Below are positions 18,345 through 49,557 of a stretch of 64,000 nucleotides of DNA, one piece after another (the first letter of the stretch is position 1; each line of letters starts with the position of its first letter). This DNA comes from Nitrospirota bacterium (GTDB lineage Bacteria; Nitrospirota; UBA9217): assembly GCA_963749655.1 (NCBI GenBank), contig CAVVOB010000012.1, positions 96,001 to 160,000 on the forward strand. The letters run 5' to 3'. The position numbers and the translations under genes are program-made. The notes under the pieces were generated by a model, which saw only the letters and a program-made list of their open reading frames with translations, made no database searches and had not been told where the DNA came from.

Positions 18345-18491
18345 TTAACAGGTTGTTGAAAAAGCTCAAGCGCGACAAATTTCGTCATGCCAGCGAAGGC
18401 TGGCATCCAGAATCATATTATAAACACTAGATTCCTGCCTGCGCAGGAATGACGGCTAAGGTCTTCAAGACGTTTTTCAACGGCCTGTTAA
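18345..18491. mobile_element. MITE-like element with 19-bp terminal inverted repeats and an internal REP pair
   Basis: TTAACAGGTTGTTGAAAAA ... TTTTTCAACGGCCTGTTAA; AATACCC lies on both flanks; internal gtcatgccagcgaaggctggcatcc and gattcctgcctgcgcaggaatgac. Confidence 0.7.
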
Positions 18492-18560
18492 AATACCCAT
18501 TCGCTGTCGTTGACATCGTTTTGAATCAGGCATATATTCGTTTTGAAGCTGGCGCGGCGT
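18490..18560 (+). promoter_or_regulatory. Repeated left-boundary promoter element P, copy 1
   Basis: aaaataccc...TTGACA (18510) - 17 nt - TATATT (18533); homologous to the copies at 28813 and 45841. Confidence 0.75.
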
Positions 18561-18683
18561 AAATTATTGCTGAACCGGACGCCAGCGGAATCCGGCATTG
18601 TCCGGGGGGCTGTTCAATAACGGATTGTTCGGCATTAACGAGGGGGTCCTCGTGATCCCCTTGTGAGATTCCCGGGAGATTTC

Positions 18684-19121
18684 ATGGCATCTCTTGAACG
18701 CGCAATCGCGATCGCTGCAAAGGCGCATGAGGGGCAGGTAGACAAGGCCGGCGCTCCTTACATCCTTCATCCGCTGCGAGTGATGTTCCGCGTAAACACA
18801 GTGGAAGAGCGCATGGCGGCTGTTCTGCATGACGTTGTTGAAGATACAAATGTCACGATCGGGATGCTGAGAGCGGAAGGTTTCCCTGAAGGAGTGTTAA
18901 GTGCGATAGAGTCCCTTACCAGGCGTCCGGGAGAAACCTACGAGACATTTGTTCTGCGGGCTGTTGCTGATCCGATCGGCCGTACCGTAAAGCTTGCTGA
19001 TCTTGCAGAGAACAGCGATCTCTCAAGGATCCCGATGCTCACGGCAAAGGACAATGAGAGAGCGGCAAAATATCGTCGTGCAATCGATCAGATTAACAGG
19101 TTGTTCAAGGAAAAAGCCTGA
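18684..19121 (+). CDS. Small HD-domain phosphohydrolase (Mesh1/small alarmone hydrolase-like)
   Basis: AHEGQVDKAGAPYILHP, AAVLHDVVEDT and VKLADLAEN motifs. Confidence 0.88.
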   Translation: MASLERAIAIAAKAHEGQVDKAGAPYILHPLRVMFRVNTVEERMAAVLHDVVEDTNVTIGMLRAEGFPEGVLSAIESLTRRPGETYETFVLRAVADPIGRTVKLADLAENSDLSRIPMLTAKDNERAAKYRRAIDQINRLFKEKA

Positions 19122-19282
19122 CCCGCTCCGCGCAACCGGACACACCTAAGGGGAAATGCGGAATTCCCGATACGATCGGGACAGGTCTCCATGCGGAATG
19201 CGGAATTGGGAAATTTCAAACAGCCTTTGAAAAAGAGTTTCCAAACCAAAAAGGCAATAGAGCCGTAAACTCCGGAGGAACT

Positions 19283-20476
19283 ATGCATCTGTCTTTGTTC
19301 AAAAGATCATCTTTTCCGCAGACCACGATACGGGCCTGTTCCTTGCTCATCGTGGTATTCATGGTCTTTGCCGCCGTTGCACAGGCAGAGGAGCGGCTCT
19401 GGGTCGAAGCCTCCATCAACAACAAGCCCGCGCGCCTCTTCTTCGACACCGGCACGAGCGACCTGGTGCTCTTCCCCAAAGGGGCCGCGCGGCTGGGTGT
19501 TTCGGTCGTTGAAGCGCCGAAAGAGACGCAACTGGACCGCGGAATAGTCTTGATCGGAAAAACGGAAGAATGCGAACTGCGGGTCAACGGGAGCATGGTC
19601 AAAACTCCTTTCCTGGTTGTAGAGATCCCGCCCATGCTGCGAACGGACGCCGATGGGTTGGTGGGATGGTATTCGCTCTCGGGAAACATCCTGATGATCG
19701 ACGCGTCCCGGGGAAGCGTGACCTCCCTTGCAGGCGTTCCCCGCGAGGCGCGTGACTGGGTAAAATTCAAGCTCCGCAGCGGGTCCCCCGTCCTGCAGCT
19801 CGAAGTGCCTCATGCCGCAGGCGGTCCTTCCGTGGTGCTGCTGGATACGGGTTCCGAGCGCGGGGTCGAACTTTCGCCTCGGCTGTGGCAGGACTGGAGA
19901 TCAGCCCACAGGAAAGCTCCTGTCACGCTTGATGCCTCGTACAGTCCTGCGACGGGCCTGATTGTTGCGGAAGAGGCGTGGGCGGATAAATTTGCCATAG
20001 GCCCGCTGTTGATGACCGAAGTGCCGCTCCAGGAGGCTCATCCAGACGCCTCATCCGGTTCATTGGGCGGCGATTTCGTGCTCGGACTTGCCGCGCTCAA
20101 GCGTTTGGATATGATAATTGACGCTGCGAACGGGATTGCGTATGTTGGCGCGAAAAACACGGCGCCGGCTCCCTATGAACACAACCGCCTCGGCGCCGTG
20201 TTTACTCCGCGAGATATGCAAAGCGAGGACCTGATCGCGAGCGCTGTTGAAGGAAGCCCTGCGTGGAAGGCCGGTATCCGCAACGGCGATGTCCTCACGC
20301 GTATCGATGATCTGGATGTAACGAAGTGGCGTACGGACCCGGCGGTACTGCCGCTCAGCCGGTTCTGGAGCCGTCCCGCCGGGACCAAGCTCCAACTTGC
20401 GCTGAAGCGCGGATCAAAGACGCTTACTGCGAATGTTGTTCTGCGTGAAATCCTGGCCGCGGGAAAATCCCATTAA
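19283..20476 (+). CDS. Exported aspartyl protease (two retropepsin-like domains) with a C-terminal PDZ domain
   Basis: Signal peptide; FFDTGTS and LLDTGS motifs; GSPAWKAGIRNGDVL PDZ signature. Confidence 0.85.
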   Translation: MHLSLFKRSSFPQTTIRACSLLIVVFMVFAAVAQAEERLWVEASINNKPARLFFDTGTSDLVLFPKGAARLGVSVVEAPKETQLDRGIVLIGKTEECELRVNGSMVKTPFLVVEIPPMLRTDADGLVGWYSLSGNILMIDASRGSVTSLAGVPREARDWVKFKLRSGSPVLQLEVPHAAGGPSVVLLDTGSERGVELSPRLWQDWRSAHRKAPVTLDASYSPATGLIVAEEAWADKFAIGPLLMTEVPLQEAHPDASSGSLGGDFVLGLAALKRLDMIIDAANGIAYVGAKNTAPAPYEHNRLGAVFTPRDMQSEDLIASAVEGSPAWKAGIRNGDVLTRIDDLDVTKWRTDPAVLPLSRFWSRPAGTKLQLALKRGSKTLTANVVLREILAAGKSH

Positions 20477-20489
20477 TCAATGGGGCAGG

Positions 20490-20644
20490 GCAATCCCGCG
20501 CCTTGGCATCCCCCGGCTCTGCCGGGGGTGGAAAGCGCTCACTCGCGCGTGATACGAACGTGTCACGCGTGCGCGAGTTCGCAGTTCCGGGAGGTCGCGT
20601 CAATCTTAGTCCCGACAAGTCGGGATGCCGGAGGGGACTCCACT
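20490..20644 (+). repeat. Repeat R1, copy 2
   Basis: Near-identical to 14191-14385 without the insert. Confidence 0.9.
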
Positions 20645-20739
20645 CAGCCGCCTTTTGACCGGACCGGCATCAGGCTCCTGAGCGGGCGAAAATGAAACTG
20701 GGCATCCGTTTCAAAAGCGGGCACAGACGGTAAAAAATT

Positions 20740-20940
20740 TCAACAACACCCTTCAAGAGGAGCAATAGGGGCCGTTTTTCTCTCCATGCGTTTCTCTTGC
20801 AACCGTTGCTGCATGTAAGGGCACCTGTCATGTTGAGAGGGCATGCAGTATTTTTCCAGTTCACATAGTGTCGGGATATAGACGAATCTATTCGCCGTAC
20901 AGGATAGGATACGGGATCCCGATAGTTGATGGCACTTCAT
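20740..20940 (-). CDS. Small Cys-rich hypothetical protein
   Basis: RBS GAAGGGAG; MKC...C...YIPT..E...YC......CP pattern. Confidence 0.55.
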   Translation of the reverse strand: MKCHQLSGSRILSCTANRFVYIPTLCELEKYCMPSQHDRCPYMQQRLQEKRMERKTAPIAPLEGCC

Positions 20941-21002
20941 GATAGGCTCCCTTCACAATCCTTTGATCATCAAAAGTGAAAAAAGGAGATTGGCAGGAGA
21001 AA

Positions 21003-25529: not shown

Positions 25530-25893
25530 AACTTGGGATTTTGGACATTAGATTATTCTGCTGAGAAATTTCGGTCCCGAAAATCACCTATATTCGTATT
25601 TTTATGAAGGAATCTGCGGCAATAGAGACCCCAATTGCAATGGACTGCAAACTGTTGGTCGTCTAGAATGTGCTCTCGTGGCTGAATGAATCAGGGCTGG
25701 TGAGGGAAAAAGAAATGGATTTCTGTAGTGTTTACGACCCCGCGATAATAGCTTTACAGCCTTCAGATGGCTAACTTTTCAATAAATTGTGCTAAATTCG
25801 TATTATAATACTGTCCGTTTTCCGACCCGTGATCACATATCGCGTCACAGTGGCATCAAGGTCATTTTTCTGCAACATTCCGTCGCAGACGTT

Positions 25894-26033
25894 GCTCCCC
25901 GAGGACGGGAACCCCGTCGGGAACGTCCCTGGCGACGTGGTCGCCCCGCGCCATTCCCGAATGAACGTCGTCACCGCGTCCATCGACCGCATCGATTTCC
26001 ACCATCCCATTTTCGTCGGCGACCTTCTTGTCG
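25894..26033 (+). pseudogene. Degenerate internal fragment of the acyl-CoA thioesterase gene (copy of ~28220-28390)
   Basis: Encodes HSRMNVVTASIDRIDFHHPIFVGDLL, identical to the 28169 ORF, with a deletion between two GTGGTCG repeats. Confidence 0.85.
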
Positions 26034-26089
26034 TTATTCGTCCGTTTCACATTTGCCCTTGCCCCCTTCGCTTAAAAATAGTATCCTCA

Positions 26090-26226
26090 CGCCGAAAGAG
26101 ATGCACCTGGACCGTGTGATAGTCCGATCGGAAAAACAGAAGAATGCGAACTGCGAATCGGCGGGAGCATGGTCAAGACCCCTTTCCTGGTTGTAGAGAT
26201 CCCGCCATACTGCGAACGGACGCTGA
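26090..26226 (+). pseudogene. Degenerate fragment of the aspartyl protease gene (copy of ~19515-19652)
   Basis: cgccgaaagag...gatcggaaaaac.gaagaatgcgaactgcg...cctttcctggttgtagagatcccgcc...gcgaacggacgc is shared. Confidence 0.85.
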
Positions 26227-26277: not shown

Positions 26278-28053
26278 ATGAATAAAGAAGTAATAGACGT
26301 AGTCGTCGATCTCGCTGAGGTGCTCGCGCGTAAACACCTGACCATTTTCTGCGGGGCAGGCATCTCGCGCAATTCAGGAGTCCCGCCTGTTAAGCCGCTC
26401 CTGGCCCATCTTCTCGGGAAATTAAGCATTCCCGAATCCATCCATCGTAAGTTTTGGGATATTCCCTTTGAGATGGTTATGCAAACACTAATAGAACACA
26501 GCAGAGGCGTGGAAGACGGCATTTTCGACATTTACGGTTTGGGCCGGCCAAATACGAGCCATCTCTTTCTCGCCGCATTAATGCATTCGGACAAAGTGCG
26601 GACGATTGTTACTACGAATTTCGATCATCTGATAGAGCATGCGCTACACGTAGATCCCCCGGCCATGGTCACGTCTTCCAGGGGCCCAACTCCGGGGGGG
26701 CTCGATATGGCGGAATATCGGTTACTCTATCGGGATGATCATTTTGAAGCTTGCCGGCTCGATGACGGTCAAAAAAGGCTGGTCAAGATTCACGGAAGTT
26801 ATCAAGACAAAGCGAGCATGATCATCACGATCAAGCAAATCGCACAACGGGACCTGTCCGCAAACCGGCGCAACCTCGTCAAACGGGTGTTTGCAAACAC
26901 GATGGCCGAGGAGCATGCCGTGCTCGTCCTGGGATATAGTTGTTCCGACTTGTTCGACATCAATGAGTGTATCGCATCGGTGACGGGAGACAAAAAGAGA
27001 ATCTACTTTGTTCAATACTCTACGACCGAGGAACGCGTGGAGGACATCAGTATCCTCAAAGACAAAAATCCTTTCTCGCACTATCCGGGGAAACGGATCT
27101 ATTGCGACACGGACGCGTTTATCGAAGAACTTTGGAAAAAAGCCGTTCTCCTTCCGTATCGAAGGGTTTGCTGCGCCGGGGATGAGCATTGGAAAACCAT
27201 GATCGATCGTTGGGCCGGTTGGAACTCGGACTACAATAAGGATGATATCCTCGGCAAACTCTACTTTGACGTCCGTGAATATCAAAGGTCGATTCAGCAT
27301 TACCAGGCAGTGCTTACGTCCTGCCGGCTGAAGAATGACCGGTTGAACGTTGCGGAATGTCTTCACAACATCGGCCTGGCGTACCATGGTAACGAAGACA
27401 GCAGTACCGCCATCGAGTATTACGAGCAGGCGCTTCGGGCGGCAAAACAACACAGGGACAAAGAATTGGCCATGGTGCTATACGGCAGTTTGGCCGCAGC
27501 AGGGATGAAATTGTATTTTCTGGGTGACAAGGAGTGCGAGCGGTCGCTTCGCTACTACAAAAAGGCTTTGCGCACGGCTAAACGACTCAAGGACAAACGC
27601 CATGAAGGGCATTGGCGCAACGGCATCGCCTCCGTCTATATGCACAGGAAGTTGGACTCGCTGGCAATTTCACACTTGCAACGGGCCTTGGACATTGCCC
27701 GTGAGCTGGGAGATAAAAGGAGCGAGTGCAGTCGGCTCGTTAGTATGGGCACGTTACATTATCATTTGGGCAACTATGAAGAGGCCATCGGCTTTTACGA
27801 ACAAGCGCTCTATATAGCAAAGGGCTTGGGGGATATTCCCACCGAAGTACAACTTCTAGACGACATCGAAAGATCAAACAAGATGAAGGATGCGCCGGAC
27901 AGATTCGAAAAATCCATGCAGCGCATGGGGATAGAAATCCTCGATGAGTCGCAGATTAGTGTCAGCGATGCCTTCTGGTCGCAGATCATCGGCTTCATCG
28001 GTGTCATCATCACCTTTTTTATCGTGTGGATGCTTCTTCAGCGCTTCTGTTGA
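26278..28053 (+). CDS. SIR2-like domain + TPR repeats + C-terminal TM protein
   Basis: IFCGAGIS, IVTTNFD, KIHGS and VLGYS SIR2 motifs; TPRs (LHNIGLAY, AIEYYEQAL, GNYEEAIGFYEQAL); hydrophobic C-terminus. Confidence 0.88.
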   Translation: MNKEVIDVVVDLAEVLARKHLTIFCGAGISRNSGVPPVKPLLAHLLGKLSIPESIHRKFWDIPFEMVMQTLIEHSRGVEDGIFDIYGLGRPNTSHLFLAALMHSDKVRTIVTTNFDHLIEHALHVDPPAMVTSSRGPTPGGLDMAEYRLLYRDDHFEACRLDDGQKRLVKIHGSYQDKASMIITIKQIAQRDLSANRRNLVKRVFANTMAEEHAVLVLGYSCSDLFDINECIASVTGDKKRIYFVQYSTTEERVEDISILKDKNPFSHYPGKRIYCDTDAFIEELWKKAVLLPYRRVCCAGDEHWKTMIDRWAGWNSDYNKDDILGKLYFDVREYQRSIQHYQAVLTSCRLKNDRLNVAECLHNIGLAYHGNEDSSTAIEYYEQALRAAKQHRDKELAMVLYGSLAAAGMKLYFLGDKECERSLRYYKKALRTAKRLKDKRHEGHWRNGIASVYMHRKLDSLAISHLQRALDIARELGDKRSECSRLVSMGTLHYHLGNYEEAIGFYEQALYIAKGLGDIPTEVQLLDDIERSNKMKDAPDRFEKSMQRMGIEILDESQISVSDAFWSQIIGFIGVIITFFIVWMLLQRFC

Positions 28054-28168: not shown

Positions 28169-28675
28169 ATGGAAGGCAAACGAGTAGCGGACAGCAGCGT
28201 TATCACAGCGCAGATGATGATCCCCCAGGACGCGAATCCCGCAGGCAACGTCCACGGCGGTGTGGTCGTGAAGATCATCGACGAGGCGGCCGGCGTGGTC
28301 GCCGCGCGCCATTCCCGCATGAACGTCGTCACCGCGTCCATCGACCGCATCGATTTTCACCATCCTATTTTCGTCGGCGATCTTCTCTTCTTCAAGGCAA
28401 GTCTGAATTCCGTGGGCAGGACGTCCATGGAGATCGGCGTGCGCGTGGAGGCGGAGAACCTGCGGACCGGCGACGTGCAGCACGCAGCCTCTGCGTATCT
28501 CACCTATGTGGCCATCGACCAGCAGGGCAAGCCCGTGCCCGTGCCGCCGCTTGTCCTCGAGACCGATGAGGAGCGGCGCAGGAACAACGACGCGCTCTCG
28601 CGCAGGGCCATGCGGCTGGCCGAGCGGAACAGGCAGGCGCAGTGCAAGCAGGACCCGGGGGCGTGTTCACAGTGA
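28169..28675 (+). CDS. Acyl-CoA thioesterase (hotdog fold, YciA-like)
   Basis: DANPAGNVHGG, VTASID, VGRTSME and AYLTYVAID motifs. Confidence 0.92.
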   Translation: MEGKRVADSSVITAQMMIPQDANPAGNVHGGVVVKIIDEAAGVVAARHSRMNVVTASIDRIDFHHPIFVGDLLFFKASLNSVGRTSMEIGVRVEAENLRTGDVQHAASAYLTYVAIDQQGKPVPVPPLVLETDEERRRNNDALSRRAMRLAERNRQAQCKQDPGACSQ

Positions 28676-28812: not shown

Positions 28813-28901
28813 CCCCTCAAAATACCCTATCGCTGTCGTTGACATCTGCTTTGATCAGGAATATATTCGTCTGGAATTTGAAATATCGAAACTGGCGCGG
28901 C
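28813..28901 (+). promoter_or_regulatory. Promoter element P, copy 2
   Basis: aaaataccct...TTGACA (28839) - 17 nt - TATATT (28862); also shares ctggcgcggc with copy 1. Confidence 0.75.
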
Positions 28902-29081
28902 ACAGAGGGCTACTTAATAACGGATTTGCCTGAACCGGCTGATAAAATTTGGTGCAATCCGCAAGATTGAACCATCGTAGAAGATCAAAGGAACCGATTG
29001 GAAAGTTTATCATATCATAAACCCGCGGACATACCGAAGGTTTATGATACAATAACTCGTTAAAGCAAAACGGAGATAAAT

Positions 29082-29384
29082 ATGCCCATCACAGAAGCAA
29101 ACAATGTTATTTTCGTTGCTTATGCGATACCATTTGCAGCGGTCAGCCTTTGTCTTTATAGGGTAACGAGAAAGGAAAAATTACAAAAAATCGATTATCT
29201 ACTTGCACTTTTTGTTTCCATTACAGGCGTTGTCATATTCCTATTCAATTCAGTATGGCTGGAACATCACACTACAATCAAATCTGGCTCATCAAGATAC
29301 ATGAAAGGCGTTTATTTCTTTTCTTTATTTTTCATTACTGGTCTTCTCACCAGTGCATTCATGAGAAACTTTTCGAGGAAATGA
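29082..29384 (+). CDS. Small AT-rich membrane protein (cassette-like)
   Basis: RBS GGAGA; three hydrophobic segments. Confidence 0.65.
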   Translation: MPITEANNVIFVAYAIPFAAVSLCLYRVTRKEKLQKIDYLLALFVSITGVVIFLFNSVWLEHHTTIKSGSSRYMKGVYFFSLFFITGLLTSAFMRNFSRK

Positions 29385-29807
29385 ATCTAGTACACCGTCA
29401 ACTTAATTGCTGATGGTTTCGCACTGTTATTCCGGCTAAAATCATGCCGGGAAAAAGTGCGAAAAAGGCGCAACCCACTACCAAGAACTATTTTTACCGT
29501 GTACTAGCCTGTCGTTCCGCGCCGATTGCTTCGCGGCATGTGAGCCCATCGTTGTCTAGAAATGAGGGCAAAAAATGATAGGGTTGTTGCACGCGTTGTG
29601 TGACCAGTTTTGTAGATCGGGTAGAGCAATATTGCGAAACCCGACGCTTTAAGACATGCCTGATTACCGAGGGGAATGCACCGCCGATTCATGCGATGCA
29701 GTAATCTACATTAAGAAACGAAATGGATGGAAAGATGTCGGGTTTCGCTACGCTCTATCCGACCTACCGACTGTTCGCCCGAGTTCATCCAATCCGCTGA
29801 GTAGAAA

Positions 29808-29856
29808 GGCCAACATCGCGGTACCAGAAGGCGGCGCGTGACCACGTCCGTTAGGT
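29808..29856 (+). other. Degenerate attC-like site
   Basis: GGCCAAC...GTTAGGT directly before the next ATG; short and imperfect. Confidence 0.4.
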
Positions 29857-29863
29857 TTCTACG

Positions 29864-30388
29864 ATGACAAATCTATTACAATGGCTTAATAATCTCATCT
29901 TGTTGATAGTGTGCATCGGCTTTATATCGACTTTATTGATCATATTTTCGGTTAAAATGAGCAGCCGTGATCGCTTTTCCAAAGTTCTAAAAGGTTTGGT
30001 TATTGGCAGCATAGTTTTTGTTTTGCTCCAGTCTTTCGTAATAAGCAGAATTTTATTGTATTCATTTTACAACCAGCTAAAAAACAAAGCGTCTATTGAT
30101 CTAAGGTATACCGGTAATGTGATAACGATCAATTCTCGCGGGGAACTGACCACATTCCTAAATATAATCAAACGATCAGAAAGAATTTCGGCTCATCATA
30201 GTCATCCTATCAATGAGATTCAACTTACTCTTCCCGACGATGAATCTGTTTATACAATTAGTAGAGACTCTTCGAACGAAAACGAATACTGGCTTGTTGT
30301 TCAAACTGGCGGTGTTGAAAGAATATTATTGCAATTCAAAACAAGTGAGCTGAATAAATGGCTGGACCGAAATGGAATTAGATATTGA
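29864..30388 (+). CDS. Hypothetical membrane protein (cassette-like)
   Basis: AT-rich ORF with two N-terminal TM segments, bounded by attC-like sites. Confidence 0.7.
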   Translation: MTNLLQWLNNLILLIVCIGFISTLLIIFSVKMSSRDRFSKVLKGLVIGSIVFVLLQSFVISRILLYSFYNQLKNKASIDLRYTGNVITINSRGELTTFLNIIKRSERISAHHSHPINEIQLTLPDDESVYTISRDSSNENEYWLVVQTGGVERILLQFKTSELNKWLDRNGIRY

Positions 30389-30390
30389 GC

Positions 30391-30446
30391 GTATAACTTG
30401 TAGATCCACGCCAATCGCTGCGCGGCGTGTGAGCTCTGGGTTAACT
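30391..30446 (+). other. attC-like integron recombination site
   Basis: GTATAAC-ttgtaga-TCCACGCC-aatcgctgcgc-GGCGTGTGA-gctctgg-GTTAACT: hairpin with extrahelical base, placed between a stop codon and the next start. Confidence 0.65.
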
Positions 30447-30450
30447 TTAT

Positions 30451-31480
30451 ATGTTTATCTATATCGATGAGTCAGGCAGCTTTTCCTATCCAAAAGAAAG
30501 AAAACATTCTTATGCCTGCGCAGGCGCTCTGACTATACCCGAACGACGACATGGCACGGTTTTGAAGAGTTTTAAAACACTCCGGCGTAAATGGGGCATG
30601 TTGGGACGTGAGGTCAAAGGTCGTGACCTTGATGAATACCAAGTCAATCAGATAATCAATCTTTTAATTAATAATGAGGCTAAGTTCCACGCTTGTGTAG
30701 TAGATTTGCTTCATCATCCTCCAGAGTCTATTGCATGGTTTAAAGATGAGCAGTCGAGAAGACTTCTAGCAAACGTCACTGATAAACACCACCCAAATCT
30801 CGTTCAAGAATTGAAAGACGCTGGCCATAAAATGCGATCTTTATCCGACCAGCTTTTTCTTCAGTTTTGCGTCATGACTGAAGTCGTTAACGCGCAGCTT
30901 CATGATAGCATGATATATTTTGCCTTTAACTCGCCAACCGAATTGGGGAAATTTCGTTGGATTGTTGATCGTAAAGAAAAAGAAAGAACAACGTACGAAG
31001 ATCTTTGGCTGAAACTTCTGACTCCTTTCATTCATGGAAGACAATTTGCAAATGAGTTTGAAAATAAAATTGTGTGCGTCGAAGGTGGTAATTATGAATA
31101 TTGCAAGAGGTTTTTTGGAACTATAGAAAAATGGCCTGAGCACTTGCCAGAGCAATCACCTGGCCTTCGCGAAAAGACGAATATCCCAACGACTGATCTT
31201 AGGCTTATTCTTAAAGAGTCATTTACATTGAAAGACTCGGCAGATGTGGATGGACTTCAGCTTGCAGATATCGTAACCAATTCTCTCCGACGTGCCATAG
31301 TTGGCAATCTTCAAGAACATGGTTGGAAGGATCTTCGGGAAACTCTTGTTTAGATGGAAAAACAGGTCTGTTCGCCTTGTACGATTTGCACCTGAATCAG
31401 AAGGCTCTTTAAAAATTGAAGACGATTTAGTTGCCAACGTAATTAATTCGCTGACTCGCAAAGCTGGCACGGTAATTTAA
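30451..31480 (+). CDS. DUF3800-family protein; 1-nt frameshift near 31337, corrected end 31480
   Basis: N-terminal IYIDESG, EVKG and C-terminal DS....LQLADIV motifs. Removing one base gives GWKDLGKLLFRW...GTVI*. Confidence 0.8.
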
Positions 31481-31490
31481 ACTTTAATAA

Positions 31491-32672
31491 ATGAATCGCA
31501 ACCCTACATATAGGCGGCCAAAATGGCTTGAGAAGCTCGATCCCAAATTTAACACGCTATCATTCCATCTTCAGCATCCCGAAATAGATCCGGATATCTA
31601 TATACGATCGCAGCATGTCGCCCTAGGAGATATGGTGCTAAAGAAGCGGAGAATTTATCTCGACCAGAAATACTGGATATATTGCCGAGATGTAATACGA
31701 GGAAAACCGCAGCATCCACTTCACCCTGAAATCTATAAGCTTCTGAGTAACGCAGTCAAGGCAGGCGAGGCTGTATGCCCTGCAAGTCACTTAGTCTTGG
31801 AAGAAACGCTAAAACAGGAGGATTCTGAATCGCGTTACTTAACAGCAACAGTTGTTCAGGAATTAAGTACTGGAATATCTCTACAAGCATATCCTGTGCT
31901 GTCTCAGGCGGAAATCCTTCATTTTTTAATAACAACACGTCCCTATCCAGTAAATGCGTATCCTTGTGAGCAGCTGGCATGGACACATATTGGCAATGTA
32001 TTCGGACACATCTCGCCCATCTCTACCGGCTTTGATGCAAATACAGAGAAGGCAATTCGCAAGTCGTGGTTCGATTTAATGGGCGGTATTCAACTGCCCA
32101 CATTAACGGAATCGCTGTATCCTCTACCACCTGAAATTTCAGGATTATATTCGAACCGCTATTATGATGAGCAGAATCAGCAATGTCGAAAACATGCCAA
32201 TGATTTTTCTTCTTTCACTGACGTCTTTCTCGTAGAAATTTCCGGTGCTTTAGATGTTTTTCAAGATGAACTCGCCGAGGCTCAAAAATACTTATTCCAA
32301 AAGCACCTTGGCCAAAAAGATATTATCGTTCCTGAGGCTCAGTTGGCCGAGGGGACAAGGCAACTCTCCAACCTCATCTATCATGCCTTTAGGCTCGACA
32401 AGATCAGAGGTCAGCTTCCTGGCCTACGAATCATGGCTGGTCTCCATGCTGCGATTCGTTACAAGCATCAAAAACACGGGAAAGGGGATCGACATGACCA
32501 TCTCCATGCAAGAGTCGCATTACCCTACTGCAATCTTTTTCTGACTGAAAAAACACTTGGTCATCTTTTATGTGATAGACCACTTGAATATGATAAGCTC
32601 TACGGATGTCGCGTTGTATGGGATCCCGTACAAGTACTTGATGCCCTTACCGATATACTCAAACCAATTTAG
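31491..32672 (+). CDS. Hypothetical protein with PIN-like acidic motifs
   Basis: RIYLDQKYWI, HLVLEE and GDRHDHLH...LPYCNLFLTE motifs; starts 10 nt after the corrected DUF3800 stop. Confidence 0.7.
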   Translation: MNRNPTYRRPKWLEKLDPKFNTLSFHLQHPEIDPDIYIRSQHVALGDMVLKKRRIYLDQKYWIYCRDVIRGKPQHPLHPEIYKLLSNAVKAGEAVCPASHLVLEETLKQEDSESRYLTATVVQELSTGISLQAYPVLSQAEILHFLITTRPYPVNAYPCEQLAWTHIGNVFGHISPISTGFDANTEKAIRKSWFDLMGGIQLPTLTESLYPLPPEISGLYSNRYYDEQNQQCRKHANDFSSFTDVFLVEISGALDVFQDELAEAQKYLFQKHLGQKDIIVPEAQLAEGTRQLSNLIYHAFRLDKIRGQLPGLRIMAGLHAAIRYKHQKHGKGDRHDHLHARVALPYCNLFLTEKTLGHLLCDRPLEYDKLYGCRVVWDPVQVLDALTDILKPI

Positions 32673-32682
32673 AAGGCACATA

Positions 32683-32730
32683 TTTTAACCAGCGCGTACA
32701 GCCGCCACGCGGCTCACACGCGCGTTCATG
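32683..32730 (+). other. attC-like site
   Basis: TTTTAAC-cagcgcgt-acagccg-ccacg-cggct-cacacgcgc-GTT hairpin just after the stop codon. Confidence 0.5.
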
Positions 32731-32759
32731 TGCATGTTACAACCCCATTTTTGATAATT

Positions 32760-34558: not shown

Positions 34559-34702
34559 GTAACCCTCTTAGGGGACATCTTAGTGCCTGGTCTTTAATGT
34601 TTGTCTGACCTTTTTTTCTGCATTTCACAGCATCCCGACTGGAACAACTTCATTCAGCTGATGATCTTGCCGGAAACACTGAACGCGTCGTCTCCGGTGT
34701 AG
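34559..34702 (+). repeat. Right-boundary repeat R2, copy a
   Basis: gtaaccctcttaggg-acatcttagtgcc-ggtctttaatg...tgcatttcac...gctgatgatcttgccggaaac...gtctccgg also occurs at 35643, 47036 and 49274. Confidence 0.88.
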
Positions 34703-34940
34703 CCGGCAGGTTGGGCAAAACGCCTCATCTTGCCCAACAGAATTCAAAAGATGTTGGGCTGTGATGCGTAGCCTAACCTACAAACTACAATATACGTCAC
34801 CAGTTACCTGGTCAAGGTAATACGAAATCGGCAACACGGCATATCGAATAGATAATAAAATATTTATGATACAGTCGCACCGTTTTTCGCATACACGTTT
34901 TCGTGTTTCTGATGTATAATGCAGCATAAAGGACGAAAAA

Positions 34941-35213
34941 ATGGAATTCGAGTGGGACCCCAAAAAATCGGAGTTGAATCGAAAGAAGCACGGTATCTCT
35001 TTTCACGACGCGGCAAGGGTATTCTCTGATCCACTCGCGATAACATTTCCCGATCCGGATCATTCGCAGAGCGAACATAGGTTCCTAACTTTCGGCCATT
35101 CCAAGGGGAACCTTTTGCTCGTCGTCGTACACACTGACCGGAATGGTAAAACCAGAATAATCAGCGCGAGGCGAGCTACGCGATATGAAAGGACAATATA
35201 TGAAAACGGCTAA
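34941..35213 (+). CDS. brnT: BrnT-family toxin
   Basis: MEFEWDPKK...N..KHGISF, HSQSEHRF and RIISARRAT motifs. Confidence 0.92.
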   Translation: MEFEWDPKKSELNRKKHGISFHDAARVFSDPLAITFPDPDHSQSEHRFLTFGHSKGNLLLVVVHTDRNGKTRIISARRATRYERTIYENG

Positions 35214-35454
35214 AAAAGAGGACATGCGGAAAGAATACCGAAGGGAAGACCTCGGAGTCGGTGTCCGTGGTAAATACTATAAAGAATATAGTAAAGGTAC
35301 AAATCTCGTTCTCCTGAGCCCAGATGTGGCCGCAGCCTTTCCTGATGAAGATTCTGTAAATACTGCATTACGGAATCTTGTGAAGCTGGCGAAACTATCC
35401 GTTGTCCCAACCCGACGTTCTGTACGTCCTCTCAAAAAACAGGCTGCCAGATAG
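35200..35454 (+). CDS. Cognate antitoxin (BrnA-like)
   Basis: Overlaps the toxin stop; MRKEY...GVRGKY...VLLSPDVAAAFPD..SVN.ALR. Confidence 0.85.
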   Translation: MKTAKKEDMRKEYRREDLGVGVRGKYYKEYSKGTNLVLLSPDVAAAFPDEDSVNTALRNLVKLAKLSVVPTRRSVRPLKKQAAR

Positions 35455-35503: not shown

Positions 35504-35572
35504 TCCCAACTAACGGCTCGACACCCTCCGGGCGATAAACCCGCCCGGGCGGGTCAGCCGTGCTTCACGTGC
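35504..35572 (+). other. Degenerate attC-like hairpin downstream of the TA module
   Basis: CCCAAC-taacggctcgacacc...gggcgataaacccgcccg...gggtcagccg. Confidence 0.4.
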
Positions 35573-35642
35573 ATATTTGTACGGGCACGCCACATCTTTT
35601 AATGGCAGATCACCAGTGCGATGTAGTTGGTTTAGCCTCGTA

Positions 35643-36067
35643 GGGGTCATCTTAGTGCCCGGTCTTTAATGGTTATCCCGCGCCTTGGCATCCCCCGGCT
35701 CCTGCCGGGGGTGGAAAGCGCTCACTCGCGCGTGACACGAACGTGTCACGCATGCGCGAGTTCGCAGTTCCGGGAGGTCGCGTCAATTTTAGTCCAGACA
35801 GGTCGGGATGCCGGAGGGGGCTCCACTCTTTCCTTTTTCTTTTGCATTTCACATCACCCCGGCTGGAACAGCTTCGTTCTGCTGATGATCTTGTCGGAAA
35901 TGATGAACACGCCGTCTCCGGTGTAGTGCCTTGTCTCAGGGTGTCCGCGTTGTGTCTTAAGTCATCAAAAACACTTCAAACGCTCTCCGCTTTATACCTT
36001 CATAACTACAATAGTTTTGAGAAAATCTATTAGCTCCCCTATTAATGAAATACAATTCCTTGGCAAA
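35643..36067 (+). repeat. Repeat R2, copy b (extended), with R1 copy 3 inserted at 35675-35827
   Basis: R2 sequence is interrupted by R1; the distal part matches 49420-49557. Confidence 0.88.
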
Positions 36068-40281: not shown

Positions 40282-40450
40282 CCGGTGCCGCAATCAGGGT
40301 GTTTTCGCGGAGTGTTCGATGTCAGTCGTAGTGAAGATTTAACTTTCTGTTTCATCCGTGTTTATCCGTGTTCATCTGTGGTTAACTGCTTTTTTCAGGA
40401 TGAATGCTCCGGCAACCGCACCGTGAACCGCCGTATCAGAGGAAGGGCCC

Positions 40451-41269
40451 GTGCGAATAGACCATACAAAGTGCGTGGCATGCGCCAACTGCGTCCCCGT
40501 CTGTCCCATGGGCGCCATCTCAATAGATATCGGGAAGAACCGCGCTGTCGTCAATGAGGAGGAGTGCGTCGAGTGCTACGCGTGCCATCGGGGAATGAGC
40601 AAGGAGCGCTTGAACCCGACTCTCGTCCGCGCTTTCCGGGGGTTCATGAAACTCCTGCGTCTCCGGTTCGAACCCGAACCCGATGTCTGTCCCACGGACG
40701 CCATCGTTCCGCAGGAGCTTGTCTGGCCCCGCATTGTCCGGCGCGCTTTCAGTGATCCGCAGGTGCCCCATGAGTCCACCGGGGTCCACGGACGCGGCAC
40801 GGAGGAGGTCAAGACCAATGATGTGACCGGCCGGGTGAAGGAAGGCGAGGTTGGTTTCACCATCGAGTTCGGCCGGCCCGGTGTCGGGGTCCGTTTTCGG
40901 GATATCCAAACCCTGACGAGGGCCATTGCTGTGCTGCCGATTTCCTTCGAAAGAAAGAACCCGATATATTCCCTCATGAGCGATCCGGCCGGCGGCGCAA
41001 TCCGCGAGGACATCCTGGACGAAAAGGTTTTATCCGCCATCCTGGAACTCAAGACCACACTTGAGCATGCGCCGCTCGTCCTGCGGGTCGTGGAGAAGAC
41101 AGCGCCGGAGCTGAACACCATCGTGAGCGTCGGCGCGGCAACGCGCTGTGACGACGTCGGCGATGATCAACTGGAACCCCTGCTCAAACGCGAGGGGTAC
41201 GCGGTCTATCGCGGCAAAACCAACCTGGGGCTCGGACGGCGGACCCGAAAAGGAGACGGTAATTTATGA
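40451..41269 (+). CDS. 4Fe-4S dicluster-containing uncharacterized protein
   Basis: CVACANCVPVCP and CVECYAC...VCPTDA motifs; GRGTEEVKTNDVTGR; GTG start. Confidence 0.85.
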   Translation: MRIDHTKCVACANCVPVCPMGAISIDIGKNRAVVNEEECVECYACHRGMSKERLNPTLVRAFRGFMKLLRLRFEPEPDVCPTDAIVPQELVWPRIVRRAFSDPQVPHESTGVHGRGTEEVKTNDVTGRVKEGEVGFTIEFGRPGVGVRFRDIQTLTRAIAVLPISFERKNPIYSLMSDPAGGAIREDILDEKVLSAILELKTTLEHAPLVLRVVEKTAPELNTIVSVGAATRCDDVGDDQLEPLLKREGYAVYRGKTNLGLGRRTRKGDGNL

Positions 41270-41940
41270 CCAATACCCTGCACAGATTCGGCGCTCCGGA
41301 AACCCTCAAGGGTGATTATGTCGTTTTTGCCATGGCGGCCCGGGGAATCAACGACGAGGGCGCACCCGCCAAGCTCCGGGACTTTTTGCGACTGGCGCTG
41401 GAGCATGGCCCCATCAACGTGGGCAACGCGGTCAAGGGAGGGATTTACCGGCCCTCTCACCGACTCAGCCCTCTGGTCCACTGGCATCGCAGCGACGCAA
41501 TGGATCCGGAGGATGTCGTGAAGGGCATCGACTCATGCACCACGGTTGCGGCGGTGTTCGACCGACAGGACAGGCTTGTGGCCTTTCTCACGGAATTGCG
41601 GAAGGCCGATCTGGGGGTCTCAATCAATATCAGCGCCCTCACCGACGAGACGCGCGCCTGCTGCAAACAGGCCGGCATTACGCGCCACAGCGTGGGATAC
41701 TCCCTGGGGTTTTTTGGCGATCTGAATCTTCTGCCGGACCGCCATGTGCTTGAGCTCTCTACCATGTGCGGTCACGGGATGGTTTCACACAATTTCGCGG
41801 GAAAGATGATCGCTTTGGTGAAGGAAGGACGGCGTGATGCAAAAGAGGCTTCGGCATGCCTCGCGCGGTTCTGCACCTGCGGGGTGTTCAATCCGGCCCG
41901 GGCAGAGCGCATTATCGAGGAGGCGCGGGAGGGGAGATGA
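41266..41940 (+). CDS. Cys-rich hypothetical protein, translationally coupled to the Fe-S gene
   Basis: ATGA overlap; STMCGHGMVS and CTCGVFNP motifs. Confidence 0.8.
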   Translation: MTNTLHRFGAPETLKGDYVVFAMAARGINDEGAPAKLRDFLRLALEHGPINVGNAVKGGIYRPSHRLSPLVHWHRSDAMDPEDVVKGIDSCTTVAAVFDRQDRLVAFLTELRKADLGVSINISALTDETRACCKQAGITRHSVGYSLGFFGDLNLLPDRHVLELSTMCGHGMVSHNFAGKMIALVKEGRRDAKEASACLARFCTCGVFNPARAERIIEEAREGR

Positions 41941-42165
41941 GGAAACCTATTGTCCTGGAAAAAGCAGTTAACCACAGATGAACACTGATAAACACAGGTA
42001 AATCAGAAAATTAAATCAAAATTCTGAATCACCTATCAGGTGCGGCGCCGAAATGATGCATGTTCCTGATTTTGCTTTTCATCCGTGTTCATCTGTGGTT
42101 CTAACTGCCGTTTTCAGGATTATCTTCCCGCCTTCAATTCGGACTTGAACCAAAAAAGCCCCATG

Positions 42166-44240: not shown

Positions 44241-44535
44241 GCGCTCCCTCCCCTCCGTATTAACGAGGAAATGCCTCAGACCGATGAATCAAGACAAAGC
44301 GCAAAAGCAACTCGCGCAAAGCCGCAAAGGCGCGAAGTAAAGCTTCGCATCCAGGCTAAGTGATTTGCCTTTCTTTGCGTCTTGGCGACTTTGCGCGAAA
44401 ATTGGTTTTTGACCTGGCATTAAAAAACCTGACTTACAATTCAATCTCTCGGTTTGTAAAGCGTTTTAACAAAGCGCCGGTCCGGAAAACCGGGCCGCGG
44501 CGCCCGGATCTTCCGTGACCGGCGGTGATGCTGAA

Positions 44536-45552: not shown

Positions 45553-45840
45553 ACTTGCCTCCTTCGATTGGATTTGCGGCACTATCGTTTTTTCGCTCAG
45601 TTCAGCGACTATACAGCAAGCCAAATTCAAACTCAAGGATTTTTGCATTTATTAAAAAGGAACATCTTATGCAATACTTGAATTAAACGAAACTACTATT
45701 GGGGTCACTTCTCGATTCTTGATAAATGGCATATTTCATCAATAATTGCTACAGCTACTCATGCATGAAAACTGTTTAGGAGTAGGTGTGCAGCTCAAAA
45801 TAACTCTTTGCCCTCTGTTCTATGCTGCCTAACCCGCCTA

Positions 45841-45900
45841 CCTCAAAAATACCCTTCGTCGCCGTTGACATCATTGTAGATCAGGACTATATTCGTCTGG
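45841..45900 (+). promoter_or_regulatory. Promoter element P, copy 3
   Basis: aaaataccct...TTGACA (45865) - 17 nt - TATATT (45888) cgtctgg. Confidence 0.75.
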
Positions 45901-46097
45901 GACATTAGATCGGCATGACATAATCATTTCTAAACCAGATCATGAGTTTATGAAATCAGGTTTCTGTTTTATTGGCGTCATTGCAACCGCAGACATTGCA
46001 GAGGCATCTCTCAACGACCTTTTGAAAAGCCTTATGCAGCAGGGCTAAAAAATCGCATTTACTACGAATGATCGAGATTCTGCTCCAAAGGTGAAAT

Positions 46098-47033
46098 ATG
46101 AACACATACTGTGATTTTCATCTCCATTTGGGAGGAAGCATCTCTCGGGAGTTGGTGAGGCGGTTTGCCCAATCAGATAATGACCAGCACGCGCTTGATG
46201 CGCTGGCTGAGGCCGATGTGCTGAAGTTATTTAAGATCGTTCACCGTCTTGTGCAATCACCGGAGCGGATTGAAATCGCGACAGAAGATGTGATCGCCGC
46301 AAGTACAGCTGATTATTTGGAAATTCGGACCACTCCCCGGGAATTTTCTTCGGCGCGATCGTTTCGTCCCTATGGAGAAGCATTTGTATCGGCCTTACGA
46401 CGATATCCTGACAAGGCCAAGGGAATACTCAGCATTGATCGCTACAAACACGATCTCACCAGTGCGCGGAACATCATCACGCTTGCGCTGGAGTATCCCG
46501 ATTGTATTGTCGGTATTGATATTTCCGGTGTTAATCCCCCGGGGATTCGCACCTTGCAGGGAGACGACCTGGGCGTCTGCATTGAAACCATCCTGGACAG
46601 CCCGTTGGGATTGGCCATCCACGTGGGGGAATTGGAGAGTGAAAAGGATCAGCGCGACAACACCGCCGCGTTAACGGCGATTGATCGCTGGTTGCAGCGA
46701 CATCCCCTGACGACAGCTGCGGGAAAAATTCGACTTGGACACGCGATTTTTTTGTCAGAGGAGCATACCCGCATCATTCGCAAGCATCACCTGCCTATAG
46801 AAATATGCCCCACCTGTCACCGGTATCTTGGATGTTGGAGTAATGGTCAGGAGCATCCCGTTCAGGCAGTGTATCCTGAACACACTTCGCCTGTCGTACT
46901 CGGAACCGATAATGCGCTGAATTTTCCAACGAGTTTCCAGCGCGAGAAGGCGTTGTTTCTTGACGCCTTCCCCTATAATCCGGCAAAGGGATGGGGCTAT
47001 CGGTTTGGACAATCTCACTGCATTGTAGGCTAA
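46098..47033 (+). CDS. Adenosine deaminase-family amidohydrolase (ADAL/MAPDA-like motifs)
   Basis: HLHLGGSI, YLEIRTTPR, LSIDR, VGIDISG, IHVGE, RLGHA, EICPT and GTDN motifs. Confidence 0.85.
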   Translation: MNTYCDFHLHLGGSISRELVRRFAQSDNDQHALDALAEADVLKLFKIVHRLVQSPERIEIATEDVIAASTADYLEIRTTPREFSSARSFRPYGEAFVSALRRYPDKAKGILSIDRYKHDLTSARNIITLALEYPDCIVGIDISGVNPPGIRTLQGDDLGVCIETILDSPLGLAIHVGELESEKDQRDNTAALTAIDRWLQRHPLTTAAGKIRLGHAIFLSEEHTRIIRKHHLPIEICPTCHRYLGCWSNGQEHPVQAVYPEHTSPVVLGTDNALNFPTSFQREKALFLDAFPYNPAKGWGYRFGQSHCIVG

Positions 47034-47035
47034 AA

Positions 47036-47161
47036 GACATCTTAGTGCCCGGTCTTTAATGTTTGTCTTTCCTTTTTCTTCTGCATTTCACACCATCCCC
47101 GGCAGCAACAATTTTATTCTGCTGACGATCTTGCCGGAAACCATGAACATGTCGTCTCCGG
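47036..47161 (+). repeat. Repeat R2, copy c
   Basis: Begins 2 nt after the deaminase stop codon. Confidence 0.88.
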
Positions 47162-47245
47162 GCGACAACATCGGTCAGCACTGCGGGCGGCAGGTTGATG
47201 ATGCAGTACTGCCCCCTCCGGTCGCCCTTGTTCCCTTCCTCGTTG

Positions 47246-47299
47246 GCGGAACTTTTTGGAAACCGTTGTCAATTTTGTCACATACCCTAAAAATACCCC
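47246..47299. repeat. Short repeat H (tgtcaattttg..acataccctaaaaatacccc); second copy at 59951-60005
   Basis: Direct sequence match; the 59951 copy forms an imperfect hairpin. Confidence 0.75.
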
Positions 47300-47422
47300 T
47301 ACAGTATTTGGTTTTTTGTGCTTAAATGACGATAAGGGCATTTTGAATATGCGTATAGATTCGTAAATGCATTTTTGATCAGGCTGTATATGTATCTTGC
47401 ACTATATTTCTTGTTGAGACTC

Positions 47423-47503
47423 TTTCGATAAAGCCAAGCCCTTCGTGAGAAGGGGACGGAAAGCTACGGATCTTGAAAACTTGAGATTGCCGAGCTGCCG
47501 AAG
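47423..47503 (+). ncRNA. c-di-GMP-I (GEMM-I) riboswitch
   Basis: cgataaagccaagcccttc-gtga-gaaggg-GACGGAAAGC-tacggatct...agattgccgagctgccgaa fits the GEMM P1/P2(GNRA)/P3 layout. Confidence 0.85.
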
Positions 47504-47626
47504 GAAATCTGCAAGTATGTCCGGTCTTTTTTTGATAAAGTCAAGGCAACGGCATATATCCTGAAGTATTCTATCTTATTGTGAGATCGTACTACCCATT
47601 TTAAAAGGTCATAGAACAATGAAAGC

Positions 47627-48238
47627 GTGATCAGCACGCAATCGTGTATTACTGGTCAAGCTGTTCAGAAGGTGGTTGCTATGCTAGGCCAGAATAAGAA
47701 ACACGTTCTTGCAGGGGAAGTAAATGAAATCCTCAGCAGAAAGGGATATTCCGGGGTTTGCCATCCGCTGATTAATTTCGCCGATACCATCGAGAAAAAC
47801 GCCCATTTCGCAAACAACAAAGTGGTTGTCTACAAATGGCTTGCTTTTGTACTTCTATTGTTGATTCCACTATTGTCCACGTACGTGTCTGTCGTGGTCA
47901 ATATGAAAGACGACGATTTATTCAAGGATTCACTGCCTTACACAACAGGGCTCCTGACGATCATGACCGTGGTTAATTCAATCTACCGGCCCCGTACGAG
48001 GTTCACGAAGTCATGCATTCTGGGAATGACCATCGATAGTCTGGTGCAGAAGATACCAGCACCTCAAAGATCAAGGAAATTGGTTGGTTTCACCGATAAG
48101 GCCGGTCGTCGGCAGAGGGTAGAAGAAAACGGCCGGAATTTATACTATGACCAGGTTCACGAAGGAAGTACTCCGGAATGCACGACTCTCTATCTGTTCA
48201 ATGATCGGCAGCGAGTTACGGGAGCCTTAAGGAGGTAA
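47627..48238 (+). CDS. Two-TM SLATT/DUF4231-like membrane protein (start and C-terminus uncertain)
   Basis: A..N...YKWL, then TM1, TM2, then SIYRPRTRF; this arrangement is reminiscent of DUF4231/SLATT. Confidence 0.5.
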   Translation: MISTQSCITGQAVQKVVAMLGQNKKHVLAGEVNEILSRKGYSGVCHPLINFADTIEKNAHFANNKVVVYKWLAFVLLLLIPLLSTYVSVVVNMKDDDLFKDSLPYTTGLLTIMTVVNSIYRPRTRFTKSCILGMTIDSLVQKIPAPQRSRKLVGFTDKAGRRQRVEENGRNLYYDQVHEGSTPECTTLYLFNDRQRVTGALRR

Positions 48239-48243
48239 CGGAT

Positions 48244-49104
48244 ATGAAGATTATTGAAATCATTAAATCGACAGTCTTGGTAGTGTTTCTGATCGTGTTC
48301 CCGGTGCTAACGAGAACCGCAGTGGCCGATTCAGCACAAGATTGGGAGAAAGCTTTAAAAATCATAGGTGATTTTGCGGACCGCTTATGCAAGGATATCC
48401 CTTTGGAGGGCCAAGGCAACACTTTCGAATTAACTGGAGGTGCTAAAGCAGAATTGAGCGGAATCATAAGACAATTAGTAAATTTGGGAATAGAAGGAAC
48501 TGCCAAATACCAAAACACCGGATACACTAATGTGCTTCAAAAAGACCTAGCAAATACACTGAAAACCAGTACGGATTGCAGGTTGCAGGTATGGAAAGAT
48601 CTGAAAGGCAAGTTCGAACCTCCGAAACCTATAAAAACAGTGATCTTTGATCGTGAAACAGCACGTTTCGGAATAACACTTGGATGGCAACTGGCTCGTT
48701 ATGAGTTCACTTATGATTCTCCGTTTCCTGAGGTTCTTAACATAAGCCCTTCGATTAAGCAGGAAATAGAGCGGTTGCTGAAACAGGACCAGTTCCCTCA
48801 CACCGTCGAAGGATTGAGCTCGCAACAATTGATAGACACAGTGCTCCTGTATTATGGAACTTCCAACTTAAAAAAACATGCATCAGTTTTACTGGGCATT
48901 GCCGCAATGCGCGCATCACTTGTTGGAGCATCTAGCAATCAGCAACACAACGATGAGATGAAACAGCTTGCATATAGCGCTATTGAGGATATCGACGGAA
49001 GTTTACTCCGACGGAAAAAGGAACTATTTAACGAACTGATAAATACAAAACCAGGTAGTGTTGCTGCGGTCATGGATTTATTAAGCAAAATGAAGTTAAT
49101 ATAG
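48244..49104 (+). CDS. Hypothetical exported protein
   Basis: RBS AAGGAGG, signal peptide ending AVA, AT-rich. Confidence 0.75.
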   Translation: MKIIEIIKSTVLVVFLIVFPVLTRTAVADSAQDWEKALKIIGDFADRLCKDIPLEGQGNTFELTGGAKAELSGIIRQLVNLGIEGTAKYQNTGYTNVLQKDLANTLKTSTDCRLQVWKDLKGKFEPPKPIKTVIFDRETARFGITLGWQLARYEFTYDSPFPEVLNISPSIKQEIERLLKQDQFPHTVEGLSSQQLIDTVLLYYGTSNLKKHASVLLGIAAMRASLVGASSNQQHNDEMKQLAYSAIEDIDGSLLRRKKELFNELINTKPGSVAAVMDLLSKMKLI

Positions 49105-49273
49105 AGCAACTACTTGCAGTAAAATCGGTAGGTGCAGCGCAAAACTTGACACATCATGTAAAGCTACTGAATATGGAGAAGAGGCTGCGGCCTATTTACG
49201 TTCATCTGCAAGTTACAGCTTGATCTTCATCTCCCGGCTATCTGACTCTGAGAAAAGTCTGAGAAAAGTTGCA

Positions 49274-49557
49274 GGGGTAACCCTCTTAGGGAACATCTTA
49301 GTGCCCGTTAATGTTTGTCTCTCCTTTTTCTTCTGCATTTCACATCATCCCCGGCTGGAACAATTTCATTCCGCTGATGATCTTGCCGGAAACCATGAAC
49401 ACTCCGGTTGTATTGCTCGGTCTCAGGGTGTCCCCCGTTGTGCCTTAAGACATCAAAAACATTTCAGAACGCCCTCCGCTTTATGCCTACATAACTACGC
49501 GATTTTTTGAATAAAATATATTAGCTCCCTATTAATGAAATAAACTCCTTGACAAAA
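49274..49557 (+). repeat. Repeat R2, copy d (extended); ends in TTGACA upstream of tetR
   Basis: Homologous to 34559-34702 and 35828-36067. Confidence 0.88.

Follow-up and report, generated by a model that had tools for sequence, protein, structure and literature searches.

The window analysed here, a 64,000-nt stretch of a Nitrospirota bacterium contig (CAVVOB010000012.1), carries three families of short repeats around foreign genes: a promoter-bearing repeat (P), a palindrome (H), and a repeat termed R2 that in two copies continues into a further segment, R3. With about even confidence, we take these repeats for what remains of several small mobile DNAs that accumulated in a single, decaying insertion hotspot. 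On the best reading, the kinds of element present are known ones: an array resembling a cluster of attC sites with no integron-integrase (CALIN) behind a promoter like the integron cassette promoter (Pc), units resembling MITEs (miniature inverted-repeat transposable elements) and repetitive extragenic palindromic (REP) sequences, and an insertion sequence (IS) of the IS110 family. The identity and decay of R2, its fixed left edge, the H palindrome and an IS110 relic with guide matches are observed directly; whether and by which enzyme these DNAs moved, whether the genes are expressed and how events followed one another are matters of inference.

R2 is present in four copies that are 87–93% identical pairwise and start at 34552, 35622, 47024 and 49270, the places where an earlier note on this DNA had located it; a profile search of the window found no further full copies. 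Translated from the minus strand, R2 gives the C-terminal part of a protein. A profile built from three of these peptides matched 38 proteins in a library of 1.84 billion, 37 of them at the C-termini of one family and one in an unrelated repeat protein; all five matches tested belong to PF01613. One of these PF01613 matches retrieved 3738 homologs, which are mostly ~186 amino acids long among those listed and are called flavin reductase where named. When the window was scored in six frames with a full-length profile of 103 homologs, the twelve best rows all fell in R2 copies (5.9–38 bits; best unrelated score, 4.8 bits), and the best scores in the four copies, over codons 154–186 (beginning at 154 in R2b and at ~161–164 in the other three), were 38, 18.8, 16.1 and 15.8 bits. 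We identify R2 as the decayed 3' end (codons ~154–186) of a minus-strand flavin reductase (PF01613) gene, together with ~65 nt of downstream sequence. The same six-frame scoring found no intact flavin reductase gene in the window, and the mid-gene fragment searched alone found nothing.

The four copies, all read on the minus strand, differ in how much of the gene they retain. R2a (34552–34702) holds the downstream flank and codons ~161–186 with an in-frame stop, and its right side is cut by a GTAG-type REP doublet. R2b with its R3 (35622–36065) covers codons 154–184 (35949–35857; 38 bits), is interrupted by a 153-nt repeat inserted at 35675–35827 and has no flanking duplication. In R2c (47024–47256), codons ~162–186 (16.1 bits) are joined by a deletion to codons ~58–89, a piece that scores 12.6 bits over codons 68–89 and is stretched to about codon 58 by tblastn. 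R2d and its R3 (49270–49554) together make a unit of 285 bp whose ends are TG...CA and which is flanked by AAAGT on either side; it includes codons ~142–186. R2b and R2d continue for ~150 nt into R3 and share the same R2/R3 junction. The first ~30 nt of R3d are assignable to the gene, to about codon 142 (0/100 shuffles); decayed gene sequence in the rest of R3, and an R3-like N-terminus in common with P0002, were both unsupported.

Divergence among the R2 copies is nearly equal at nonsynonymous (pN 0.16) and synonymous (pS 0.175) sites over a small sample of 18 codons, and the variable columns split 6/5/5 by codon position. Because pN approximates pS and R2a carries a stop, R2 appears to have multiplied as dead DNA, and it was probably copied at least four times after the death of the gene. 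Database fragment P0001 reads on into sequence resembling the R2 downstream flank, which suggests that the same arrangement may occur elsewhere; the junctions of database flavin reductase fragments are spread over codons 100–160. A scan of a one-per-species genome collection with an R2 pattern returned six loci in unrelated proteobacteria, none of them homologous to R2 (chance matches).

All four copies start at TG(T/C)AG after unrelated left flanks, and their right edges vary, being formed by a REP-like doublet in R2a, by R3 in R2b and R2d, and by H in R2c. The fixed edge is therefore the left one, and R2 looks like the left end of a MITE-like unit of ~285 bp. R2 had been proposed as a dedicated right-hand recombination repeat that closes units; a neutrally decaying gene fragment whose sharp boundary lies on the left does not fill that role. 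The exact 5-bp repeat AAAGT around R2d–R3d (chance 0.0012) was found at one of 15 end pairs tested and at one of three natural units: there is no flanking duplication at R2b–R3b, three of four at R2c–H1, and none around any two-copy composite. The hairpin that follows GTAG at the R2 left end is weak (z −1.1 and −0.3) and no better than shuffles.

Known MITEs include the 288-bp integron mobilization unit (IMU) and those that flank integrons (PMC3575428, PMC10969869; this and the other literature cited here is drawn on in its available portions). As described in those portions, such elements resemble R2+R3 in being non-autonomous, repeated by cassette arrays and of similar length (~285 bp in R2+R3, with a 5-bp duplication at one copy), and in having ends that can supply promoter hexamers. 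R2+R3 differs from them in lacking a clear pair of terminal inverted repeats (TIRs) and in having a body made of a host-enzyme gene fragment instead of a transposase remnant; its R2 copies are also divergent, and no duplication surrounds two-copy composites. A search of literature mostly excluding subscription papers and supplements returned no report of a flavin-reductase-derived repeat. Upstream of a tetR-RND (resistance-nodulation-division) efflux operon, the end of R3d contributes a TTGACA that is separated by 17 bp from a following TATTTT (49549–49577), a possible hybrid promoter.

The second repeat, P, occurs on the plus strand at 18490–18547 (P1), 28815–28876 (P2) and 45841–45902 (P3), preceding an HD-domain gene, the cassette array and a deaminase gene, respectively. 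This placement agrees with the earlier note: the three copies are 81–86% identical over ~58 nt (n = 3) and carry a perfect TTGACA-N17-TATATT promoter, preceded in P1 by AAAATACCC. That word occurs five times in the window, always on the plus strand, against 0.26 expected, with three occurrences in P and two in H; TTGACA-N16-18-TATAWT occurs four times against 0.01 expected, in the three P copies and at 14451. Both hexamers, the 17-bp spacing and the flanking blocks are retained while the middle of the spacer varies, which points to a selected promoter, and P2 matches the promoter-box consensus at 11 of 12 positions. P would accordingly be a separately repeated, selectively conserved sigma70 promoter, as judged from its sequence. 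A P-related promoter at 14440–14478, with a 16-bp spacer and likeness to P upstream of the −35 box too, stands ahead of a cyclopropane-fatty-acid synthase cluster; P may descend from this native promoter, or the two may belong to one regulon.

Beyond the promoter core, P1 and P2 show weak similarity further downstream, to ~18626 after P1 (p = 0.0055), and the DNA upstream of the P cores is unlike the H body (p 0.10–0.82, six comparisons). Searches for P as an antisense gene fragment gave no match in Pfam, PDB or plasmids; these searches are insensitive, and the large protein library was outside their scope. No test supported P as an integrase-gene promoter (PintI) with H as attI, or P as the junction of an IS circle.

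H appears to be a ~55-bp palindromic repeat of REP/MITE type. The intact copy, H2 (59953–60005), lies before a low-GC response-regulator gene beyond the span covered by the earlier note, and its fold is stable (z −3.74; p 3e-4); the fold is lost in H1 (47248–47303), a decayed copy that is joined to R2c at the right end of the latter. P begins with the right-hand arm of the H palindrome, so that AAAATACCC is common to P and H as a direct repeat, yet constitutes one arm of H. An H motif had been placed before a riboswitch/SLATT unit, and one is indeed found there (47248–47299); it belongs to the right end of R2c and is not the opener of the following unit. The left ends of R2a and R2d match the right end of H1 as imperfect inverted repeats (score 23.5, reached by at most 1 in 6000 random sites, though a few unrelated sites in the window score as high). 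Because H is itself palindromic, this match may reflect a shared REP-like motif and not true TIRs, and H2 is palindromic without an exact GTAG end. The flank of H2 was considered as a flavin reductase N-terminus and rejected (3.9 bits).

GTAG-family REPs form head-to-head dimers, with a usual spacer of 20–100 bp (PMC3733652). Within what the available text of that source covers, our repeats are similar in that R2 begins with G(T/C)AG on the left, H1 ends in the complement, H is palindromic and GTAG doublets lie nearby; they are dissimilar in the weak hairpin after the R2 GTAG and in a spacer of 280 bp that contains gene fragments. GTAG-tagged REP-like doublets are located at 29609–29770, 34698–34785, 45782–45841 (a remnant directly before P3) and 49128–49200, several of them beside cargo junctions; other doublet families occupy 4671–4977, 15865–16010, 40336–42112 and 44311–44402. 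No REP-associated tyrosine transposase (RAYT) was detected among the window open reading frames (ORFs) scanned.

P2 heads an array (29082–32733, plus strand) of four AT-rich ORFs, one of them a DUF3800 gene, interspersed with REP-like doublets. Its attC-like sites, near 29503–29556, 29800–29860, 30394–30446 and 32688–32733, were called by eye; there are five such candidates in all, the folds in the array are weak (z +0.5 to −1.5), and two home-made scanners did not discriminate them. Since neither 32 ORFs nor 128 intergenic frames (33+ amino acids) yielded a match to an integrase family, the array fits a CALIN (as defined in PMC4889954) and not a complete integron, a membership that its sequence makes likely but unproven. 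The earlier statement that the window lacks an integrase holds for tyrosine and serine integrases in these frames, and overlooks a broken IS110 DEDD recombinase gene before R2a. The comparison with an integron Pc is borne out to the extent that P2 appears to head the array as a Pc would.

As in CALINs and integrons, as far as the available sources describe them, the array combines attC-like sites, AT-rich and promoterless-looking ORFs, a toxin–antitoxin (TA) module and an upstream promoter with no intI nearby; it differs in that its attC sites were called by eye without a covariance model, that P recurs before genes with no evident attC and that no attI was identified. Cassettes inserted near genomic promoters (10.1101/2022.09.11.507474) offer a comparison for the P-led genes. 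A strong hairpin (29007–29055; z −4.25) precedes the first cassette-like ORF in an attI-like position. The TA module, a BrnT toxin with a putative antitoxin (bacterial type II; 34941–35454, plus strand), is followed by an attC-like hairpin at ~35510–35570 (z −2.6). Joining R2-left to the half that the guide predicts, to see if R2-left is a truncated attC, gave no folding gain, and this possibility was discarded. The DUF3800 ORF (30451–31353) weakly matches the PADLOC candidate PDC-M04A, a hint of defence cargo.

Between the cassettes and R2a lies the broken gene of an IS110-family DEDD recombinase (32925–34240, plus strand), which carries a premature stop and frameshifts and retains the DEDD and Tnp_20 domains in pieces. 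The 3' non-coding region (34240–34551, plus strand) folds like a bridge or seek RNA (z −4.03) with a large internal loop. On its 5' side the loop holds GGCTCACA, which equals the top strand at 32711–32718 within an attC-like site, and on its 3' side CACCTACA, the complement of 34552–34559, exactly the left edge of R2a. The joint chance of both 8-nt matches is 1.5e-4, a post hoc value that becomes perhaps 1e-3 after about four choices of loop and order. In a bridge RNA, as set out in the available text of PMC11208160, the left target guide (LTG) in the 5' side of the loop equals the top strand of the left flank and the right target guide (RTG) in the 3' side complements the right flank; because both matches have the expected orientation, the IS110 loop fits this geometry. 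The left-edge 8-mer matches at 8/8 positions in R2a and 7/8 in R2b, as an overlapping 8-mer in R2c and with two mismatches in R2d.

The left guide sequence GGCTCACA is also present on the bottom strand of another attC-like site (29547). Given this second match and the position of the first inside an apparently complete attC-like hairpin, the left match may reflect the attC motif and not the insertion point. Some IS1111/IS110 members are known to target attC and REP sites (PMC11187229), and GTAGGTG also starts two other REP-like doublets in the window. The relic resembles IS110/IS1111 elements, in the portions of PMC11208160, PMC11187229 and 10.64898/2026.08.14.744561 available, in its DEDD and Tnp_20 domains, structured 3' non-coding region and guide geometry; it departs from them in its broken gene, in a donor loop and exact left end that could not be placed, and in a left match that falls within an attC-like hairpin ~200 nt upstream. 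Its protein matches in a plasmid and phage search are only ~30% identical, and plasmid and phage searches with the IS110 DNA, P2, R2d–R3 and P3–H1 gave nothing meaningful. Flavin reductase genes as habitual IS110 neighbours were considered and not taken as evidence, being found in one of five annotated plasmid contexts (a sixth is unannotated). In that one, a Novosphingobium plasmid (L009 2995–5101), a flavin reductase gene of the R2 subfamily is followed by an IS110 gene, probably by chance.

Under the hotspot reading, the R2+R3 unit, which is built from the tail of a dead flavin reductase gene, was probably copied by a transposase or recombinase acting in trans, and R2 would mark junctions with foreign DNA since both prefer the same AT-rich intergenic spots. 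P2 would act like an integron Pc before the CALIN-like array, while P1 and P3 would each probably express one acquired gene. An IS110 with guides for the R2 left edge and for an attC-type motif may have inserted at R2a and then decayed, and could have fixed the common R2 left edge through half-match recombination. Read in this way, the locus is a modest curiosity, a small mobile repeat derived from the gene tail of a host enzyme, together with a natural IS110 in which the guide loop seems to connect the edge of that repeat with an attC-type motif.

The earlier note had described blocks in which P or H, a cargo and R2 follow one another, and this regularity is partial. For three of the five left motifs (P2, P3 and H1), an R2 follows ahead of the next left motif; this is not so for P1 and H2, and R2b has no left motif. 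In a set of 51 hand-picked genes, those that follow P or H have a lower GC content than genes in random plus-strand slots (p = 0.016, 3689 of 237,336 combinations; 0.055 for P alone), and those that precede R2 are marginally lower (p = 0.056). One ORF of this set was given an off-frame start, which alters its GC3 and leaves the GC values compared here untouched. Of the proposed capture or accretion platform, a local accretion hotspot with a sigma70-type promoter before low-GC accessory genes is supported, and a purpose-built single capture device looks less likely.

Several observations weigh against the hotspot reading. The P, H and R2 copies all have the same orientation, lie within 42 kb and are ordered so that no H comes before a P, a pattern not readily accounted for by independent random insertion; the excess of low-GC genes after P and H is likewise above chance. 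A clean flanking duplication is seen at just one natural unit, and R2-left and R3-right are not inverted repeats, which leaves R2+R3 without proper TIRs. The left guide match falls, ~200 nt before the IS110 gene, within an attC-like hairpin that seems intact, and the donor loop is not assignable, with one 8-nt match in the right end and matches of only 6–7 nt in the left end.

The alternative that survives best, although we regard it as unlikely, is that the repeats descend from one ancestral integrative unit with P as its left end, H as its right end and a direct-repeat core of 9–18 bp. Such a unit would have had a promoter pointing inward and, near the right end, a flavin reductase gene carried as a convergent passenger, with cargo entering between P and the R2 left edge; P3–deaminase–R2c–H1 (45841–47303) would be one complete, decayed copy, and the whole would amount to the platform of the earlier note in corrected form. 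The core is present in all five P and H copies amid unrelated outer flanks and bounds the contiguous P3...H1 segment, the R2 left edge is fixed in four of four copies, low-GC genes follow P and H, all copies are co-oriented, and the order P1<P2<P3<H1<H2 has a chance of 1 in 10. No fused H–P junction is present, however, and the sequence before the P cores does not resemble the H body in the six comparisons above. H is moreover a self-contained palindrome, R2b and R2d end in R3 instead of H, and the 128 intergenic frames hold no integrase remnant.

Next in rank, and unlikely as well, is a local expansion driven by the IS110 itself, in which bridge-RNA half-match recombination after insertion at the R2a edge duplicated the flank and brought in cargo, to yield R2-cargo-R2-cargo downstream of the IS. 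Every R2 copy is indeed found downstream of the IS and in the same orientation as it, starting at the guide-matched edge (R2a, R2b and the overlapping 8-mer of R2c). Precedents, in the available portions of the sources, are tandem non-coding repeat units with one-sided guide matches beside IS110 transposases (10.64898/2026.08.14.744561) and the half-match recombination demonstrated for IS621 (10.64898/2026.08.31.748434). The repeat boundaries reported there keep donor-side matches, whereas the match here is to the presumed target loop, and the 5-bp duplication at R2d points to DDE-type transposition. Since GTAGGTG starts other REP-like doublets, the IS may simply target a REP motif; the expansion also leaves P and H unexplained.

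More doubtful still is a unified scheme in which P, R2 and H together make up a single non-autonomous unit for capture and expression, with a promoter-bearing left end and a right end that has the direct-repeat core. The dead flavin reductase tail inside it would be a docking site that can be used repeatedly, an IS110 bridge RNA able to read attC as well would recognise the edge of this site, and an RNA-guided recombinase acting in trans, not IntI, would load cassettes behind a fixed promoter. If true, this would tie bridge recombinases to gene loading of the integron kind and give CALINs and isolated cassettes a route to promoters without IntI, a question not yet settled for integrons.

Where islands accrete, a classic signature is the repetition of co-oriented 3' gene fragments at their junctions. 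Such fragments are seen at the junctions here, and R2b and R2d have the same R3 junction. Even so, site-specific tandem accretion of islands into a flavin reductase 3' end, each event leaving a displaced 3' fragment, is improbable: the fragments end at differing codons (~58, ~142–154 and ~161), the database junctions are similarly dispersed, the window contains no restored gene and no integrase, and the copies diverged neutrally and not as functional replacements; nor did the literature search find a paper on a flavin reductase gene as such a target. An assembly artefact or chance is very improbable, for although the source is probably a draft assembly, the copies are divergent (81–93% identical) with private indels and insertions, which argues against an artefact, and the motif counts are far above shuffles.

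Other features adjoin the repeats of the hotspot. Directly before P1 lies a MITE-like insertion (18349–18487) that has inverted ends and a TTAA on each side, and the gene after P1 (18687–19121, plus strand) encodes an HD-domain, RelA/SpoT hydrolase-like protein with no R2 downstream. The adenosine-deaminase-family gene after P3 (46098–47033, plus strand) overlaps the R2c left edge with its last codons and matches a CARF-ADA model, a further hint of defence cargo. Downstream of H1, the riboswitch of the riboswitch/SLATT unit is a c-di-GMP-I-GGC riboswitch (47424–47503, plus strand), the sole match in Rfam, ahead of two unassigned AT-rich ORFs (47627–48238 and 48244–49104); the SLATT label was not supported by Pfam, NCBIfam or PADLOC.

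A palindrome-rich repeat family of ~155 nt lies on one strand at 14191–14385, 20490–20645, 35675–35827 and, in part, 61787–61852; one copy is inside R2b and one has a 45-nt internal insert. Finally, degenerate pieces of a thioesterase gene (28209–28386, 94%) and an aspartyl protease gene (19515–19653, 88%) are found at 25884–26226, directly before a SIR2-TPR defence-like gene (26278–28053), in what is a second instance of fragments from local genes adjoining foreign DNA.

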